Positions 5,187-38,836 of a DNA stretch of 44,072 nucleotides are shown one piece after another. Each line of letters begins with the position of its first letter. The first letter of the stretch is position 1. The notes beneath the pieces were generated by a model. That model saw only the letters and a program-made list of their open reading frames with translations, did no database searches and was not told the DNA's origin. Made by a program: the position numbers and the translations under genes. This DNA is from a virus (Duplodnaviria > Heunggongvirae > Uroviricota > Caudoviricetes): the IMG/VR virus record IMGVR_UViG_3300045988_043987, one strand, 5' to 3'.

Positions 5187-5187
5187 G

Positions 5188-5210
5188 AAAGGCCCCGTGA
5201 GGGGCCTTAA
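5188..5210. terminator. bidirectional hairpin terminator (AAAGGCCCC-GTGA-GGGGCCTT)
   Basis: perfect GC-rich hairpin between convergent genes. Confidence 0.55.
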
Positions 5211-5212
5211 AT

Positions 5213-5398
5213 TTAACAAGCTGATGTTGTCCAGTAATCACCATAATCATTTACGTAAAATTTCTTCATACCAGACCACCCGAAGTTCTTACATGTCTTT
5301 TTGAATCGCTTCATTACCTGTGTTCTTGTCAGCATCAAAACACTACCGTTTCCATCTCTTGCGAAATCTCCGCCGGACTTATATGGTTTCTTTTCCAC
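5213..5398 (-). CDS. hypothetical lysine-rich small protein (61 aa), antisense to late genes
   Basis: GTG start preceded by GGGGG; conserved operator/promoter motif directly upstream at 5424-5456. Confidence 0.4.
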   Translation of the reverse strand: MEKKPYKSGGDFARDGNGSVLMLTRTQVMKRFKKTCKNFGWSGMKKFYVNDYGDYWTTSAC

Positions 5399-5423
5399 TT
5401 TTATGCCCCCTGTTTAAATTAAC

Positions 5424-5456
5424 CGAATAGTACCCTATTATATTGGTGTCTGCAAA
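5424..5456. promoter_or_regulatory. conserved dyad operator/promoter motif, copy 1
   Basis: CGAATAGTACCCTATTATATTGGTGTCTGCAAA; core AATAG-N4-CTATT with TATAAT on the minus strand. Confidence 0.6.
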
Positions 5457-5499
5457 TATTATTTTTATGCGTTACACTGGCGATACTACAGGAGGGCTT

Positions 5500-6543
5500 A
5501 TGAGCTTACTTACATCGCTAATCAGCCACCAGATATGGCTGCAACGCACCGCATCCGGCGAAGTGAAAGACCTTGCACCGTTTATTCAGGAGATGCGGGA
5601 TGAAATCAAACGGCAGGTGCTGTTATTCGGTGACGACGGGCGAAGCACAGCGCGCCTGAATAAACTGTTACGCGACCTCGAAGAAGCATTGACCGGACTT
5701 ACGGGTGACTGGCAGACAAAGCTGACAGAAGACCTTAAGGAACTGGCAGCGTATGAGGCTGAGTGGAACGTAAAGACACTTACCGCCAACGTAAATGCGG
5801 AATTTGTTACACCTACCGCCGAACAGGTGTGGGCCGCCGCCGAGTTTCAACCGCTCTCATTAAGCGACAAACCAGTTGATTTCACCAAGCTGATGTCGGG
5901 CTGGGGTGAAACAGAAGTCGCGCGCCTTGTAACCGGCGTTAAAATGGGTTTCGTACAAGGCCAAACCACACGGCAGATTGTTAAAAGCGTAGTCGGCGCT
6001 GGCGGACTGGCAGACATCTCGGAACGAAACGCAGCTACAGTAATACGTACTGCGCTGTCTCATGTGTCCAACGAAGCCCGTAACGAGACGTACCGCCAGA
6101 ACGACGACATCATTGAGAAATACGAAATAGTCGCCACACTCGACAGCCGTACATCAACAATATGCCGTAGCCTGGACAGGCAGGAATACGAAATCAGCAA
6201 AGGTCCGAGACCCCCTTTCCATCCTAACTGCAGAACGACCACTGCGCCCGTAATCAGTTCCGAGTTCGATTTCCTGGATAAAGGTGCAAAACGCGCGGCT
6301 AAGGGTGCGAACGGCGGTACTCAGGTAAGTGCGGACACCACTTACTACGAGTTCCTCAAACAACAACCGGCGTGGTTTCAGGACCAGGCCCTCGGCCCTG
6401 TTCGCGGTAAGATTTTCCGTAACAGCGGTATATCGCCGGAAGAGTTTCGCGTAATATCTGTAGATGGTTTTGGGAATCCGCTCACGCTTAAGCAGATGGC
6501 GGAACTCGATAAACGTGTCGCTGATTATCTGAAAGGGGAATAA
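5500..6543 (+). CDS. head morphogenesis protein (Mu F / SPP1 gp7-like minor head protein)
   Basis: characteristic C-terminal motif ...STICRSLD...PPFHPNCRTT; ATG at 5500 with AGGAGG. Confidence 0.85.
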   Translation: MSLLTSLISHQIWLQRTASGEVKDLAPFIQEMRDEIKRQVLLFGDDGRSTARLNKLLRDLEEALTGLTGDWQTKLTEDLKELAAYEAEWNVKTLTANVNAEFVTPTAEQVWAAAEFQPLSLSDKPVDFTKLMSGWGETEVARLVTGVKMGFVQGQTTRQIVKSVVGAGGLADISERNAATVIRTALSHVSNEARNETYRQNDDIIEKYEIVATLDSRTSTICRSLDRQEYEISKGPRPPFHPNCRTTTAPVISSEFDFLDKGAKRAAKGANGGTQVSADTTYYEFLKQQPAWFQDQALGPVRGKIFRNSGISPEEFRVISVDGFGNPLTLKQMAELDKRVADYLKGE

Positions 6544-7004
6544 TGATGGGCTTTTTCAAAGTAACTGATGTACCGTCGCGTCGCGTAGTCCAGTACGCCC
6601 GCGTGTCTGGCTCCGGCGAGAACGTAGTATTTATTGAGGATGAAAGTGTACTAGGTACACCAGTAGACGATATGCCGTTTGCGGATAAGACAGGCATCGC
6701 ACTTCCTGCGGCAGGTATGCTTTATGAGATTCCGTATCTGGCTGATGCGGGTGATGTGTATTTCTCCGAGCAACCGAAAGATGCGGAACTGGTAGACGGC
6801 AGCGCAACCCTCACTGTCGAAGTTAAAGCAGGTGAAGCGCCGTATACACTGACCTGGTACAAAGACGGTAAGGAAGTGGTAAACGCCCCGGAAGAGGCCT
6901 TGTCTCTGACGGTCAATGCAGTTGGTGAATACTTCGTTAAGGTTACTGATGCCGATGGTGTAGATGCGGTAAGTAAAGCGGCGAAGGTTACTAAGCCAGA
7001 ATGA
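6543..7004 (+). CDS. Ig-like domain protein (putative capsid decoration)
   Basis: Ig-like beta-sandwich signature TLTVEVKAGEAPYTLTWYKDGKEV. Confidence 0.6.
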   Translation: MMGFFKVTDVPSRRVVQYARVSGSGENVVFIEDESVLGTPVDDMPFADKTGIALPAAGMLYEIPYLADAGDVYFSEQPKDAELVDGSATLTVEVKAGEAPYTLTWYKDGKEVVNAPEEALSLTVNAVGEYFVKVTDADGVDAVSKAAKVTKPE

Positions 7005-7006
7005 TA

Positions 7007-7038
7007 AAAGGCCCCTTATGGGGCCTTAATTTTATTTA
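7007..7038. terminator. bidirectional intrinsic terminator
   Basis: AAAAGGCCCC-TTAT-GGGGCCTT followed by AATTTTATTT. Confidence 0.7.
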
Positions 7039-7553
7039 AATCGCGCTGGCATTAGCACCATAAATGCAGTGTTTGAAAATGATATTTTGCATCCTCTGAT
7101 TTGGTCCTGGAAATCGAAACGAGCGATTTCATTTTTGTATGCCTTAGAAATCTTGTGCGCGTCCGCCAAGTAGCGCAGGGTGAACCCTATGCTGTCAACC
7201 GCCCCCGGCGTGATGTGCGCCACACGTCTCCAGTCAGGAAACCTTCCGTCTACAACATCTACCGGAAGTGTACATATAAGCGCACGACTATCGTCATAGA
7301 AAGAAACGCTGCTGTTGTCGTGGTCTACTTCCGCGTAGTTAAATTTAGAAGGCTCTCTCCCTTTGATGTCTATGAGAACCGCATTCTCAACGTTTGTCTT
7401 AACGTTGTCGCAGAACAATCTATGACCGTCCGTAGACACTATCAATCCCTCCGGGTCTATGTAAAAAGCATTCAAATAATAGCGCACATCATTTTTAGCT
7501 CTGCATATTTTTGCCCCTACATACGCAGGGAAAGTAATTACTGTAGTAGCCAT
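7032..7553 (-). CDS. truncated beta sliding clamp (DnaN)-like protein
   Basis: segments DVRYYLNA, STDGHRLF, VDGRFPDWRRV, SIGFTLRYLADA and C-terminal MVLMPARFK match recalled enterobacterial DnaN domain II and C-terminus; GAGGAGG ribosome-binding site; own promoter motif. Confidence 0.7.
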   Translation of the reverse strand: MATTVITFPAYVGAKICRAKNDVRYYLNAFYIDPEGLIVSTDGHRLFCDNVKTNVENAVLIDIKGREPSKFNYAEVDHDNSSVSFYDDSRALICTLPVDVVDGRFPDWRRVAHITPGAVDSIGFTLRYLADAHKISKAYKNEIARFDFQDQIRGCKISFSNTAFMVLMPARFK

Positions 7554-7578
7554 TTTAACTCCTCCTCGTTTCGATAAC

Positions 7579-7611
7579 TGAATAGTACCCTATTATGTTG
7601 GGGTGTGCAAA
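7579..7611. promoter_or_regulatory. conserved dyad operator/promoter motif, copy 2
   Basis: TGAATAGTACCCTATTATGTTGGGGTGTGCAAA; minus-strand reading precedes the clamp-like gene's ribosome-binding site. Confidence 0.6.
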
Positions 7612-7661: not shown

Positions 7662-7704
7662 AAACTATTCGAATAGTTGACTTTTCACTAAAAATATGCT
7701 AAGC
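7662..7704 (+). promoter_or_regulatory. promoter of ncRNA A with upstream perfect palindrome
   Basis: palindrome AACTATTCGAATAGTT (7662-7677) overlapping -35 TTGACT (7676-7681); 17-bp spacer; -10 TAAGCT (7699-7704). Confidence 0.55.
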
Positions 7705-7710
7705 TCCACC

Positions 7711-7910
7711 TGAGCTTGTGAAGTATGAACAAGCGACCGCGGCGCGGGCAGGTAACGGAGCGGGACGTAAGTCCTGAGTGTAGTTACGCTGACGCGTTCG
7801 GAAGGGCCATACTCTATTGCTTGTGTAAAAAGTAACTGGTTTACTGAGATTACGCCGTTTCTATGTTTAAATGATAAGGACTAGCGCCCCGCTTTATGGC
7901 GGGGCTTTAC
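7711..7910 (+). ncRNA. candidate structured small RNA, paralog A
   Basis: own promoter; 5' hairpin GCUUGU-N9-ACAAGC; internal hairpin GGAC-GUAA-GUCC; conserved 3' segment UUCGGAAGGGCCAUA; terminator-like hairpin GCCCCGC-N6-GCGGGGC plus U-rich tail; paralog at 38625. Confidence 0.5.
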
Positions 7911-14672: not shown

Positions 14673-14697
14673 AAGGCCCCTTTCGGGGCCTTTTTCT
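14673..14697. terminator. bidirectional intrinsic terminator
   Basis: AAGGCCCC-TTTC-GGGGCCTT plus TTTTT. Confidence 0.7.
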
Positions 14698-15251
14698 TAC
14701 AAACCTAATTTTAAAGCAATGTCTATAACGTTCGATTTAACGTCACCTGGTATGATGTAGGTGTCGTAATCTTTTACACCGCTAACATCATACAGATAAC
14801 CACGGCTGTCCCCCTCAAACGTATAGCCGTCGCGATGGAGGCGAACGATTCGCACGTCATGACCCGCGGCGACGATAGGGGCTACTTCGCTGGCGAACCC
14901 GCCGTCGGACACTACAAAAACTTCGTCGCCGTCTGGCAAGTTTTCAGCAAGATACTTACCGAAATAATCACTACCAAGTACCGGTTTAATGAATTGCTCA
15001 GATATAGCAATCATGAACTGACGCCGCGACAAGCCATTAAGGAAGCCTTCTGACTTTTCTTTCCGTGCCCGGTCGTCGTAGCCGTCGATAAACTCGTGGT
15101 AAGCATCCGGGCCTAATGCCGCCAGAGCGATATTGAACATTGGATTCTTGAAACTGGTGATTCCCTTCGCAAAGCCCATTTCTACCAGCGCCATAGCAAG
15201 TGTGTCTTTCCCGCAACCCGCCGGGCCATTAAGAATAATTACCTTAGCCAT
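14697..15251 (-). CDS. deoxynucleoside monophosphate kinase (T4 gp1-like)
   Basis: P-loop NGPAGCGKDT near N-terminus. Confidence 0.7.
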   Translation of the reverse strand: MAKVIILNGPAGCGKDTLAMALVEMGFAKGITSFKNPMFNIALAALGPDAYHEFIDGYDDRARKEKSEGFLNGLSRRQFMIAISEQFIKPVLGSDYFGKYLAENLPDGDEVFVVSDGGFASEVAPIVAAGHDVRIVRLHRDGYTFEGDSRGYLYDVSGVKDYDTYIIPGDVKSNVIDIALKLGL

Positions 15252-15739
15252 TATTTATCGCTCCCGTGTGGTTTTAAGTGTGTAGAGTTCCCGTTACAGT
15301 CGTATTCAGTAACCGCGTGAGTGGTTATACCGAGTCCGCGGAAATGCTTTATTACCGCGGGAGAGTCGTCGAATGCGCACAAGATTCTTTCCAGCCCGAT
15401 AGCACGTAACACCTCTTCTTTAATTACGATGTCTTTTCTGTTGTCGTGTTTGCTGCGCATTATCAGCGTGTCAAACTTAACGTTATTTTCTCGCAACCAT
15501 TTACGAGTCCCATCCTCAGCGTCGTCGCTTCGACCGGTAAGGATGATTACGGTCATCCCGGTATGCCACAGCGTGTTGCACAAGTGAATGTTGTCATATA
15601 TCGGCGCATCATCTTTGCACGCCATGTTAAATGGCCTCCAAGCCCATGTTTCGCCGTAGTTATCTTTCGGCAGCAGGTGCAAACGATGTGTACCATCTGC
15701 TAATGTCCCGTCTAAATCGAAAATTACAATATCTTTCAT
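15251..15739 (-). CDS. HAD-superfamily phosphatase/nucleotidase
   Basis: HAD motif I FDLDGTL at N-terminus. Confidence 0.7.
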   Translation of the reverse strand: MKDIVIFDLDGTLADGTHRLHLLPKDNYGETWAWRPFNMACKDDAPIYDNIHLCNTLWHTGMTVIILTGRSDDAEDGTRKWLRENNVKFDTLIMRSKHDNRKDIVIKEEVLRAIGLERILCAFDDSPAVIKHFRGLGITTHAVTEYDCNGNSTHLKPHGSDK

Positions 15740-16904: not shown

Positions 16905-17096
16905 TCACTTCTCGTTAACATTCGAGTTGCACGCCCAGATTAAAATAAACACCCACGGCAGCAGAACCCATCCGAGAAACAGGTTAGCCATGAATATCGC
17001 TAACTTCGCTTTATGGTTACGGAAGTATGCAACCAGGAAAGGTGCGAAATAGGCGAGCAGTGCAAACAGAATTAAGGAAACTGGTAAACTTGACAT
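16905..17096 (-). CDS. small membrane protein (about 63 aa, 2 TM helices)
   Basis: hydrophobic helices; AAGGGG before ATG at 17096; first gene of antisense operon. Confidence 0.5.
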   Translation of the reverse strand: MSSLPVSLILFALLAYFAPFLVAYFRNHKAKLAIFMANLFLGWVLLPWVFILIWACNSNVNEK

Positions 17097-17122
17097 TTTA
17101 AACCCCTTCATTGTTGGTGTAA

Positions 17123-17156
17123 GTGAATAGTACCCTATTATATTGGGGCGCGCAAG
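17123..17156. promoter_or_regulatory. conserved dyad operator/promoter motif, copy 3
   Basis: GTGAATAGTACCCTATTATATTGGGGCGCGCAAG. Confidence 0.6.
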
Positions 17157-17680: not shown

Positions 17681-18045
17681 ACGCGCTGTACAGGTTCGCC
17701 ACCTACGAGTTCGTTGATAAGCATAAAATCAGAGAGTTTGATTCTATAGCTGACGGACACGAACAGGCGCTTATCGCGATGGGTGTAATCGATAAGAAAA
17801 AACGTGCAGCGCGACGGGGTGGGCCGGAATGCCCGCCCCTTTTTATATCCACCTTTGAGACGTATTGCGACATTAAGTTTACGCGACACGTGCGCGAGGA
17901 CGCTGTAGTATTGTTTGCAAGAGAATCCGTTACGTGGCAAGACCTGAAAGCCTATCTCGATGTTACGCAAAAGCAGCTTAGCCTGTTCGAGATAGACATT
18001 ATCATGGGCTTAGAAGCAATCTTTGAAGGTAGAAATCATGGCTGA
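17662..18045 (+). CDS. tail assembly chaperone T-frame extension (putative -1 frameshift product)
   Basis: -1 frame opens at 17662, overlaps last 6 codons of G ORF; slippery-like GGAAAAG at 17671-17677; ends overlapping tape-measure start. Confidence 0.45.
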   Translation, partial: SITGKVDALYRFATYEFVDKHKIREFDSIADGHEQALIAMGVIDKKKRAARRGGPECPPLFISTFETYCDIKFTRHVREDAVVLFARESVTWQDLKAYLDVTQKQLSLFEIDIIMGLEAIFEGRNHG

Positions 18046-26268: not shown

Positions 26269-26404
26269 ACTCTTCTGATACCTTCTCCAGTACAAACGCC
26301 AGTTGCGCATTAGCGGCATCTCTTTGCTGCCGTAGTCGTAGAACCTCTTCTTCAAGTTCCTTGATACGTTTTTGTAATGCCGGAATCGGGGCTATGATGT
26401 TCAT
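26267..26404 (-). CDS. hypothetical coiled-coil micro-protein (45 aa)
   Basis: ATGA coupling to stop of Toprim gene; below track cutoff. Confidence 0.3.
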   Translation of the reverse strand: MNIIAPIPALQKRIKELEEEVLRLRQQRDAANAQLAFVLEKVSEE

Positions 26405-26916
26405 CTGGTAAATTTCCTCGCAAGATACGTTATTTCTTCTTCACAAAGTTCATCAAGGTCATTTGACACAAATCCTCTGGTGAATGTTTTGCTGAACTTT
26501 AAGCCCGCTTTATCATTGTCACCGGCGCACACCCATTCATACGGCAAAAGTGACATTTGCTGCCGTAAGTCCGCTGGTATGTTCGACCCCAATGCGCTAA
26601 CTGCATTAAACCCGCAATTCATCAAAGCAACAGCTTTAAATATGCTTTCGGTAACAAATACCACCCCGCTACTCGGCAAATACTCAAGTCCCCATAAACA
26701 CGGCCTTGTTGTTCGGGTATAGTACCGCGCGTCTTTATGGTTCTTGCAGTTCTTTTCGGCGTGTGGTTTGTAGTGCTGGTACCCGCGAAGCCTACCGTCA
26801 AATCCCCACAGGTAAAACGTAGCTACTCCAGGGCCTAAGACTACACGTAAACGGTCCGCGTCAAAACCTCGTGACAGCAGATGTGCCTTAAGTAGTAACT
26901 CCTCGCTGCCCATCAT
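26401..26916 (-). CDS. Toprim-domain protein (putative)
   Basis: VTESIFKAVAL (Toprim Glu) and CAGDNDKAG (DxD) motifs. Confidence 0.5.
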   Translation of the reverse strand: MMGSEELLLKAHLLSRGFDADRLRVVLGPGVATFYLWGFDGRLRGYQHYKPHAEKNCKNHKDARYYTRTTRPCLWGLEYLPSSGVVFVTESIFKAVALMNCGFNAVSALGSNIPADLRQQMSLLPYEWVCAGDNDKAGLKFSKTFTRGFVSNDLDELCEEEITYLARKFTR

Positions 26917-35221: not shown

Positions 35222-35250
35222 ATAATTAATATGGTACTATTCACATATCA
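35222..35250 (+). promoter_or_regulatory. dyad operator/promoter motif, site 2, about 20 nt before ribosome-binding site of helix-turn-helix gene
   Basis: TAATATGGTACTATTCACAT, one mismatch from canonical copies. Confidence 0.55.
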
Positions 35251-35271: not shown

Positions 35272-35487
35272 ATGCAACCATCTGAACTAGGCATCCGTGT
35301 AGAACAACGCCGTAAAGAACTCGGTATCTCCCAGCGCCGTCTGGCGGTCCTGGCCGGTGTTTCCCAGGGCGCGATTAACCAGCTGGCACTTGGAGTAACT
35401 CAGGACGTCCGCCCGGCGACGCTGTTCAAGCTGGCGGAAGTGCTGGAAGTAGACGCCAAGTGGCTGGCGTTCGGTGAAGGGGCTTAA
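35272..35487 (+). CDS. XRE-family (Cro/CI-like) helix-turn-helix transcriptional regulator
   Basis: helix-turn-helix signature ISQRRLAVLAGVSQGAINQL; AAGGAG ribosome-binding site; lone plus-strand gene in minus-strand module. Confidence 0.75.
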   Translation: MQPSELGIRVEQRRKELGISQRRLAVLAGVSQGAINQLALGVTQDVRPATLFKLAEVLEVDAKWLAFGEGA

Positions 35488-38481: not shown

Positions 38482-38589
38482 TTTTATATCTCCTGTTTGT
38501 TTAGTGAAGCCAAGTATAGGATAGCGTGAATGTAAAAGCAACCAAAACACCACACAAAGTTACTAAGATACAAAAGATGCTACTGGTAT

Positions 38590-38618
38590 TGACTTTTACT
38601 AAGAAATATGCTAAGCTC
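38590..38618 (+). promoter_or_regulatory. promoter of ncRNA B (TTGACT - 17 bp - TAAGCT)
   Basis: same hexamers and spacing as ncRNA A promoter. Confidence 0.55.
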
Positions 38619-38624
38619 GTCCTG

Positions 38625-38836
38625 AGCTTGTGAAGTATGAACAAGCGACCGCGGTGCGCGGCAGGCGAAACGAGCACGTCTCGACGTGTGGAGTGAGTCT
38701 CGCTGGCGCATTCGGAAGGGCCATAGTCTATTGTTATTCCCGCCTAAGTATCTAAGTTACTGATTTGACGTAGGTTAGAACCGCAAGCTCACTCACTCAC
38801 TCTTGGTGCCTTCGGCACCCCGTTCGTTTCGTTTCG
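38625..38836 (+). ncRNA. candidate structured small RNA, paralog B
   Basis: shares 5' 37 nt and 3' UUCGGAAGGGCCAUA segment with paralog A; internal hairpin CACGU-CUCG-ACGUG; terminator-like GGUGCC-UUCG-GCACC plus U-rich tail. Confidence 0.5.

Follow-up and report, generated by a model that had tools for sequence, protein, structure and literature searches.

A phage-encoded short homologue of the beta sliding clamp that keeps the partner-docking pocket and lacks the ring interface

The mini-clamp locus

The stretch of DNA analysed here (the window, 44,072 nt) is the complete or nearly complete genome of a Kagunavirus-type siphophage (Guernseyvirinae). Over the 2 kb surrounding the gene of interest it is 91–93% identical to Escherichia phages 26, fFiEco03, XY2, Ivi and others. 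Its replication genes encode a family A polymerase (PolA), a primase-helicase, an SNF2 helicase, an Enc34-type SSB and a DUF2800 nuclease. The gene of interest (7032..7553, minus strand) encodes a 173-aa protein that we term the mini-clamp; residues 1–115 correspond to domain II of the bacterial beta clamp, DnaN, and residues 116–173 to the C-terminal half of domain III. As the initial annotation of this region had stated, the gene runs opposite to the head and lysis genes that flank it, namely a Hoc-like head-decoration gene (6543..7004, plus strand) on one side and spanin, scaffold and capsid genes (from 7930, plus strand) on the other. Comparison with the orthologue in phage Ivi gave a dN/dS of 0.13 at a dS of 0.30, evidence that the gene is protein-coding and under purifying selection. 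A plus-strand ORF overlapping it (7101..7577) is a shadow of the mini-clamp gene. The PADLOC catalogue of defence and anti-defence systems yielded no match, nor did Rfam in the non-coding regions flanking the gene.

The expression signals proposed in that annotation were also found. The strong ribosome-binding site is a Shine-Dalgarno sequence, GAGGAGGA, read off the sequence at 7560..7567 (minus strand), 6 nt from the ATG. Farther to the 5' side lies the conserved promoter/operator-like motif (7575..7611, minus strand), about 37 nt long, with the sequence TAAC-TGAATAGTACCCTATTAT-GTTGGGGTGTGCAA. Read toward the mini-clamp it contains TTGCAC-17 nt-TACTAT, which across genes becomes TTGCAN-17 nt-TACTAT, and an inverted repeat, AATAG(N4)CTATT, lies inside it. 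The motif recurs at two further sites and partly at a third. The second copy (5420..5456, minus strand) is directly upstream of a 61-aa ORF (5398..5213, minus strand), and the third (17120..17156, minus strand) is directly upstream of the ORF for a 68-aa membrane protein (17111..16905, minus strand), which heads an opposite-strand exonuclease island. The partial fourth copy, comprising the core only (35227..35242, plus strand), is 30 nt upstream of a gene for a 71-aa XRE-type helix-turn-helix regulator (35272..35487, plus strand). All four copies have the same orientation to a start codon 20–30 nt off. The motif is conserved in Ivi and in phage Bas70, where a different gene comes after it. Its hexamers match the promoter consensus only moderately, and a consensus scan did not report the 7575–7611 site. 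It may reasonably be read as a shared promoter with an operator for the XRE-type regulator.

The gene had further been described as bracketed by terminators, and there is a hairpin on either side. At its 3' end is a bidirectional terminator hairpin (7008..7027, both strands) with an 8-bp stem, six GC pairs and T-runs on both strands, common to the mini-clamp and the convergent Hoc-like gene. Upstream of the mini-clamp motif is a terminator-like hairpin (7701..7717, minus strand), identified by consensus match only, which would insulate the mini-clamp from antisense read-through.

Clamp homology and architecture

A phmmer search against PDB sequences matched approximately 30 beta clamps. The best was that of E. 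coli (E 3.9e-7), with query residues 16–117 aligned to DnaN 144–253; a second stretch, aligning 116–171 to DnaN 311–365, is too weak to count by itself. When an alignment of 31 family members was compared with E. coli DnaN, the match rose to a probability of 99.6% (E 2.7e-24) and spanned DnaN 142 to 366 continuously, with approximately 254–312 deleted. The DnaN motifs cited in the initial annotation are correct. Domain I of DnaN has no counterpart in the mini-clamp, nor do residues ∼254–312, which include I272 and L273. What is retained of domain III is about half, one helix and three strands. The junction VDGRFPDWRRV-short linker-IGFN..YLADA is common to all 31 aligned members, among which the start codon is invariant.

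Structure prediction, proposed earlier as a check, agreed with the sequence comparisons. The AlphaFold2 model built on the 31-member alignment is compact (pLDDT 95.6, pTM 0.91) and has three beta-alpha-beta-type units, the second of which is without its helix, the second helix of domain II. The best 50 Foldseek matches in the PDB were all beta clamps, identifying the clamp (processivity) fold. The mini-clamp is a truncated DnaN homologue consisting of domain II and the C-terminal half of domain III. Where the initial annotation had placed domain II together with only the last strands of domain III, the assignment of domain II and the absence of domain I stand, whereas the share of domain III must be enlarged to roughly half. 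The half that is kept lies packed on domain II and contributes to the partner pocket.

Curated family models recognise the protein below their thresholds. The sole Pfam match in a scan at E up to 10 was PF02767, with 17.6 bits against a cut-off of 27, and TIGR00663 scored 18.1 bits against a cut-off of 137.65. Because these DnaN thresholds were missed, we file the mini-clamp as a derivative and not as DnaN itself. Its pI is 7.7, and most family members have a neutral to basic pI.

Could the mini-clamp nonetheless be a true sliding clamp, several subunits of which form a closed or C-shaped ring and confer processivity on the phage PolA or on host polymerases? The clamp fold would suit such a role, as would the depositors' labels of sliding clamp or processivity factor, and a shorter form of E. 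coli beta made up of domains II–III, beta*, has been reported to act as a clamp. We nevertheless judge a ring decidedly improbable. The canonical head-to-tail interface, in which domain I meets the domain III helix bearing I272 and L273, is deleted on both halves and, since the kept half of domain III packs against domain II, no natural interface for ring closure would be left; the loss of the second helix of domain II in the window protein also tells against it. In addition, PolA bears no canonical clamp-binding motif, and Bas70 replicates with a nearly identical PolA and no mini-clamp (see below). The absence of both ring-interface halves also makes co-assembly with host beta rings unlikely.

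Retention and conservation of the partner-binding pocket

According to a 2024 review, 18 residues make up subsites I and II of the clamp peptide pocket. All 18 positions fall within the segments that the mini-clamp retains, and 15 are identical to E. coli DnaN (mini-clamp residue first): R24=R152, L27=L155, T41=T172, G43=G174, H44=H175, R45=R176, L46=L177, P106=P242, R110=R246, V111=V247, Y128=Y323, V166=V360, M168=M362, P169=P363 and R171=R365. The substitutions, from E. coli to mini-clamp, are N320T, V344I and M364A. The earlier suggestion that part of the pocket survives was therefore right as to the pocket and too cautious as to its extent, with essentially the whole pocket kept.

Among 244 relatives, mean conservation was 0.80 at pocket positions and 0.35 elsewhere (Mann-Whitney p 9e-9). 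Pocket residues account for 12 of the 21 positions conserved in at least 80% of these members (hypergeometric p 4e-9). The rest lie beside the pocket, in the same loops, except for K134, a family-specific lysine in the last helix. Judged by this conservation, the docking pocket is under strong selection across the family. Lys or Arg is conserved at family positions 12, 20, 134, 137 and 140; of these, positions 20, 134, 137 and 140 would lie on the helices expected to face DNA, a hint of DNA contact.

A pocket separated from the ring has an engineered counterpart. I272 and L273 are dimer-interface residues on a domain III helix, and beta carrying I272A/L273A is monomeric, keeps partner binding, and binds the clamp-loader subunit delta approximately 50-fold tighter than the dimer does; it still binds DNA, but does not tether Pol III for processive synthesis (2024 review).

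Family size, distribution and existing labels

With tblastn we found the mini-clamp in 226 phage records, from hosts of the genera Escherichia, Salmonella, Klebsiella, Vibrio, Proteus, Aeromonas, Shewanella and Serratia. The family profile, run against 1.84 billion cluster representatives, gave 30,675 matches, 9,514 of them at E ≤ 1e-10. The best 150 of the 30,675 were all 141–246 aa long, and nearly all aligned to the profile end to end. BFVD likewise holds many short (163–266 aa) phage clamp-like models beside full-length phage clamps, including short ones from phages of Burkholderia, Bacillus, Rhodococcus and Gordonia.

The initial annotation knew of no described phage mini-clamp, a claim that has to be withdrawn. 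This gene family is already in databases and is not newly discovered: the family is large, GenBank, UniProt and PHROGs label its members as the beta subunit of DNA polymerase III, as a sliding clamp or as a beta clamp domain protein, and one genome paper names an orthologue 'DNA polymerase III sliding clamp', with no functional test. Our literature searches turned up no functional work on phage clamps of this short kind. What appears to be undescribed is the architecture of a pocket without a ring, the size of the family, and its swappable, polymerase-independent genetics.

A different label, 'RusA-like Holliday junction resolvase', is attached to PHROG 3007, whose profile matches residues 13–172 of the mini-clamp (E 3.5e-37), and to many Pharokka-annotated GenBank records. 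The idea that the protein is such a resolvase derives from the PHROG 3007 label, and we find it barely credible. The Pfam scan described above detected the DnaN central domain and no RusA domain, all significant sequence and structure matches are to sliding clamps, and in relatives it is another small gene that is annotated as resolvase-type.

It could also be asked whether the mini-clamp is a decaying, functionless remnant of a full-length phage or host dnaN, as its shortness relative to DnaN and its scores below the curated family thresholds might suggest. We hold this to be very improbable, given the low dN/dS, the invariant start codon, the conserved pocket and the confident, compact predicted structure. 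The architecture, moreover, is kept end to end in the best 150 representatives and across many phage groups.

Accessory status and genomic context

Phage Bas70 has the same replication module as the window, with a PolA 98.2% identical, and has no mini-clamp anywhere in its genome. Between identical flanks, its slot holds an unrelated 67-aa gene. Close homologues of the mini-clamp (>60% identity) occur in 27 phage records, as against 181 for the adjacent conserved leader. The GC content of the gene is 44.8%, that of the genome 50.7%. The mini-clamp gene behaves as accessory cargo. In a gene-content comparison limited to three genomes (the window and Ivi against Bas70), only the mini-clamp, the 68-aa membrane protein and a 146-aa protein co-vary, in a sample too small for any conclusion about a co-inherited partner.

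The converse arrangement was observed in phages swi2 and Serratia Eta, which have a mini-clamp and neither a PolA homologue nor any annotated polymerase; a Pfam scan of the large non-structural ORFs of swi2 detected no polymerase domain. Bas70 thus has PolA without a mini-clamp, and swi2 and Eta a mini-clamp without PolA, from which we conclude that there is no obligate partnership with a phage polymerase.

We examined 70 IMG/VR loci, representing 22 mini-clamp groups. Neighbours were early or replication genes (DUF2800 nuclease, helicases, PolA, primase-helicase, ParB-like), with CI-like repressors nearby. Two lambdoid arrangements were seen, CI / cro-like-CII-miniclamp-O-DnaB and CI / CII-like-miniclamp-x-DnaC-like, while the order in Serratia Eta is SSB-ParB-miniclamp-helicase. 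In several unrelated siphophage and myophage groups, the mini-clamp is an opposite-strand island in the structural region.

Lambda-type phages replicate with host Pol III and its clamp. The presence of the mini-clamp in phages that lack a polymerase, and presumably need host Pol III and the clamp, argues against a general Pol III poison, and its occurrence in phages both with and without their own polymerase points to a ligand on the host side. The initial annotation had offered, as one option, that the protein poisons host clamp function. That option fares poorly, since the halves of the ring interface are absent and family members reside in polymerase-less swi2 and Eta and in lambdoid operons.

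Search for a phage partner

A strict search for the clamp-binding motif in all window ORFs returned one match only, QLSLF in ORF 17779..18045. It is not conserved in Ivi, where the sequence is QNIGMF, and is consistent with chance. The window PolA, helicases, SSB and nuclease contained no clamp-binding motif, even with loose patterns. Across the 70 IMG/VR loci, the sole recurrent motif among neighbours was QMHLSL, in the ParB-like protein of a single clade; it sits in a helix of the helix-turn-helix and is probably a structural coincidence.

These results weigh on the proposal that the pocket serves a module internal to the phage, binding a motif in a second phage protein; a link between replication and late transcription would be one such use. 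Clamps are known to drive late transcription in phages, as in T4 gp45 and in Mu C with host beta. In Kagunavirus, Cornellvirus and Dhillonvirus the gene is divergent from, or beside, the start of the spanin-scaffold-capsid late unit, and the regulatory motif is common to three other genes, including the HTH regulator. Even so, we rate the proposal as improbable: the window proteins yielded no conserved clamp-binding motif, the enrichment among neighbours came only from the ParB helix of one clade, the gene is nowhere near late promoters in other phages, and Bas70 keeps the late region without the mini-clamp.

A further possibility looks to host enzymes instead. The mini-clamp might be a docking platform, held on phage DNA by its basic helices or on a phage replisome protein, that recruits motif-bearing host enzymes; Pol III, Pol I and ligase would be brought to phage replication or recombination intermediates independently of the clamp loader. 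Consistent with this are the conserved pocket, the Lys/Arg at positions 12, 20, 134, 137 and 140 with the mostly neutral to basic pI, and the persistence of DNA binding in monomeric beta. So too are the recurrence of the gene in early or replication modules (lambdoid cII-miniclamp-O-DnaB/DnaC, and Eta) and its occurrence in phages that encode no polymerase and have to recruit host Pol III. Yet the gene is dispensable in a Kagunavirus with the same replisome and is patchy among close relatives; the window has it in a swappable slot away from the replication module; monomeric beta is unable to tether Pol III for processive synthesis; and neither the window ORFs nor the 70 IMG/VR loci revealed a phage partner or motif. 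On balance we regard a platform as less likely than not, and as the main rival to the reading preferred below.

Discussion

The reading that we tentatively prefer, while placing it somewhat short of an even bet, is that the mini-clamp is an off-ring receptor for clamp-binding motifs and acts as a competitive sink. As the product of an accessory gene with a putative promoter of its own, it would present a free-standing partner-docking pocket on an arc of one and a half domains that would be monomeric and unable to close into a ring. This pocket would bind the QLxLF-type motif of host replication and repair proteins in competition with the DNA-loaded host ring. Because the mini-clamp has one pocket, off the ring, a soluble excess of it would chiefly draw away clients with a single motif, such as translesion polymerases, Hda, MutS/MutL, ligase and Pol I, and the multiply tethered Pol III replicase would be much less affected; this selectivity is argued from avidity. 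The outcome would be altered access of host proteins to clamps without a block to replication. A sink that has little effect on the replicase would reconcile the presence of the gene in phages that encode a polymerase with its presence in phages that depend on Pol III. The decoy idea of the initial annotation is plausible in kind, and the data accord about as well with a part in docking or recruitment.

Some observations sit less comfortably with a sink. The conserved basic residues 20, 134, 137 and 140 would be needless for a protein that does nothing other than sequester peptides. Frequent placement in replication modules is no less compatible with a replication helper. For a phage with its own PolA, the advantage of titrating host clamp clients is not obvious.

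The tighter binding of delta by monomeric beta suggests clamp-loader capture as a specific sub-hypothesis. Such capture would conflict with the existence of mini-clamps in Pol III-dependent phages.

More broadly, mini-clamps may be a widespread and unstudied type of phage protein that mimics the docking site of the central replication and repair hub of the host rather than blocking the hub, and that rewires the action of host factors during infection, a generalisation that we see as possible while leaning against it. If it is true, soluble pockets in their thousands, or a landing pad on phage DNA that needs no loader, would alter the set of host proteins able to act, from polymerases and repair factors to regulators (Hda, MutS/L, translesion polymerases, delta). 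The patchy, cassette-like distribution would then reflect host-specific conflicts, and one possible use would be to neutralise motif-bearing toxins or defence effectors aimed at the clamp.

The beta clamp is the hub that gives bacterial polymerases access to DNA, and likewise the systems for mismatch repair, translesion synthesis and the control of initiation; its pocket is a target of antibiotics. A natural, stable 173-aa fragment with the pocket and without the ring would be a new phage strategy, in which a phage competes for the clients of the hub rather than inhibiting the hub. It would also be a ready-made minimal scaffold for the study and screening of pocket ligands, and would explain a very large family whose members are now mis-annotated, either as RusA resolvases or as subunits of a replicative clamp. 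The effect of the mini-clamp is directly testable by genetics, because the slot swaps among near-identical phages, as between the window and Bas70.

Comparison with known systems

T4 gp45, and Mu C with host beta, show a clamp used outside replication, in late transcription. The window mini-clamp is beside the start of the late unit, yet this adjacency is not conserved across the family and no evidence for a transcription partner was found.

As a docking platform, the mini-clamp would be comparable to the non-ring processivity factors of herpesviruses (HSV UL42, HCMV UL44, KSHV PF-8 and EBV BMRF1). Those factors differ: each contains two complete PCNA-like domains, is of eukaryotic lineage and engages the viral polymerase in a dedicated interaction. 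Unlike the UL42/UL44 type, the mini-clamp has no polymerase motif that we could find to pair with it, and its gene is dispensable for the phage PolA.

Phage interference with the clamp hub early in infection is likewise exemplified by Gp168 of Staphylococcus phage Twort (PDB 7EVP), which targets host beta. [quoted passage not shown] Gp168 and gp8 bind and block a host protein, whereas the mini-clamp would copy the docking site and compete for its clients.

Full-length phage beta clamps are also DnaN homologues, among them gp35 of mycobacteriophage Adephagia (402 aa) and the clamp of Ralstonia phage Heva (354 aa). They differ from the mini-clamp in having three domains and presumably forming rings. 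Expression of Adephagia gp35 is highly toxic to the host, which, for a full-length protein of 402 aa, is a loose precedent only.

Among natural clamps truncated at the N terminus is E. coli beta*, a shorter, UV-inducible dnaN product that starts around domain II. It has a complete domain III and reportedly functions as an oligomeric clamp, whereas the half of that domain which forms the interface is absent from the phage protein.

Relative to bacterial DnaN itself, the mini-clamp is much shorter (173 aa against 366), is phage-encoded and accessory, and falls below DnaN thresholds; it is without domain I and the N-terminal half of domain III, and in this phage domain II has also lost its second helix. 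It is like DnaN in its homologous sequence and fold and in having the same peptide pocket between domains II and III. With engineered monomeric beta I272A/L273A it shares a pocket that is kept where a working ring interface is absent.

Variable gene content at the mini-clamp position

Downstream of the Hoc-like gene lies a slot for exchangeable cargo. In the window it carries the mini-clamp gene (7032-7553), which encodes the truncated DnaN homolog, whereas in the related phage Bas70 (locus L013, 2035-2238) the same slot, with identical flanks, holds an unrelated 67-aa ORF (MYAICEVVQEFDEEF...). Yet another small gene lies downstream of the Hoc-like gene in Serratia phage Eta. In lambdoid contigs the mini-clamp gene is inserted in the rightward early operon, with cII before it and replication genes after it. 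The latter encode replication protein O and a DnaB-like helicase in one contig (L036, 7593-10856), and a 292-aa protein and a DnaC/IstB-like loader in another (L054, 7459-10260).

Two protein families of the PHROG collection, 3007 and 12598, match the mini-clamp protein, and both are labeled as RusA-like Holliday junction resolvases. For the mini-clamp family we reject the label of PHROG 3007 as wrong; it is now entering new GenBank phage annotations.

An insertion of ∼280 bp (5187-5466), flanked by the portal gene on one side and a head-morphogenesis gene on the other, is missing from both Bas70 and Ivi, a related phage that has a mini-clamp ortholog. It holds a 61-aa ORF (5213-5398, minus strand) that is low in GC (39%) and for which a family search returned no match, together with one copy of the regulatory motif described below. 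Neither Ivi nor Bas70 has counterparts of the genes at 14697-15739 and 26401-26916 (both minus strand). Their products are a 184-aa protein, a PNKP-type HAD phosphatase (162 aa) whose gene adjoins a metallophosphatase/exonuclease gene, and a Toprim-like protein (171 aa) encoded downstream of an SNF2 helicase.

Clamp-binding-type motifs

A ParB-like protein with ParB HTH/KorB domains is encoded on the mini-clamp strand, at a distance of one to four genes upstream, in 17 loci from T1-like phages and Serratia Eta. Examples are in phage swi2 (L010, 16090-16899), in Eta (L012, 4882-5703) and in the IMG/VR loci of mini-clamp group 7. Its peptide QMHLSL fits the hexameric clamp-binding pattern; because this peptide falls inside the HTH helix and is confined to one clade, the match is probably a coincidence. 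The sole strict clamp-binding-type pentapeptide in the window is QLSLF, in an ORF (17779-18045, plus strand) between the tail assembly chaperone and tape measure genes that is probably a frameshift extension of the chaperone. The corresponding sequence in Ivi is QNIGMF, so we took QLSLF to be a chance match.

Candidate regulatory elements

Four copies of a regulatory motif were found, each 20–30 nt upstream of a gene oriented opposite to its surroundings. The genes concerned are that for the 61-aa ORF (motif at 5420-5456), the mini-clamp gene (7575-7611), a gene for a 68-aa membrane protein that heads the exonuclease island (17120-17156) and a gene for an XRE-type HTH regulator (35227-35242). 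This arrangement suggests a small regulon that contains its own regulator.

A 16-bp perfect palindrome, AACTATTCGAATAGTT (7663-7678), occurs once in the window and overlaps the −35 element of the putative plus-strand promoter. Further AATAG/CTATT half-sites lie nearby, at 7581, 7591, 7612 and 7624. Lying between divergent transcription units, the palindrome is a candidate operator.

A non-coding module of extreme conservation

A plus-strand non-coding module (7677-7910) opens with a promoter-like element (TTGACT-17 nt-TAAGCT, with a TG upstream), continues as a structured RNA of ∼200 nt and ends in a terminator hairpin (7886-7905), directly after which the spanin-scaffold-capsid genes begin. 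Its 239 nt were found at ≥95% identity in 179 of 181 records of Escherichia and Salmonella phages; for comparison, the neighboring mini-clamp gene shows a synonymous divergence of 0.30. A paralogous copy (38589-38825, plus strand) stands ahead of the other plus-strand gene block in the window, and has its own terminator (38805-38819). It shares the promoter and the conserved TTCGGAAGGGCCATA block, and its first ∼45 nt are identical to those of the first copy. The central hairpin varies between the two copies and also in a Cornellvirus, with some of the changes compensatory. A 36-aa ORF within the first copy is frameshifted in the second. An Rfam search with the module gave no match. In layout the module is similar to the lambda pR'-6S RNA-tR' region or to the put-type antitermination sites of HK022.
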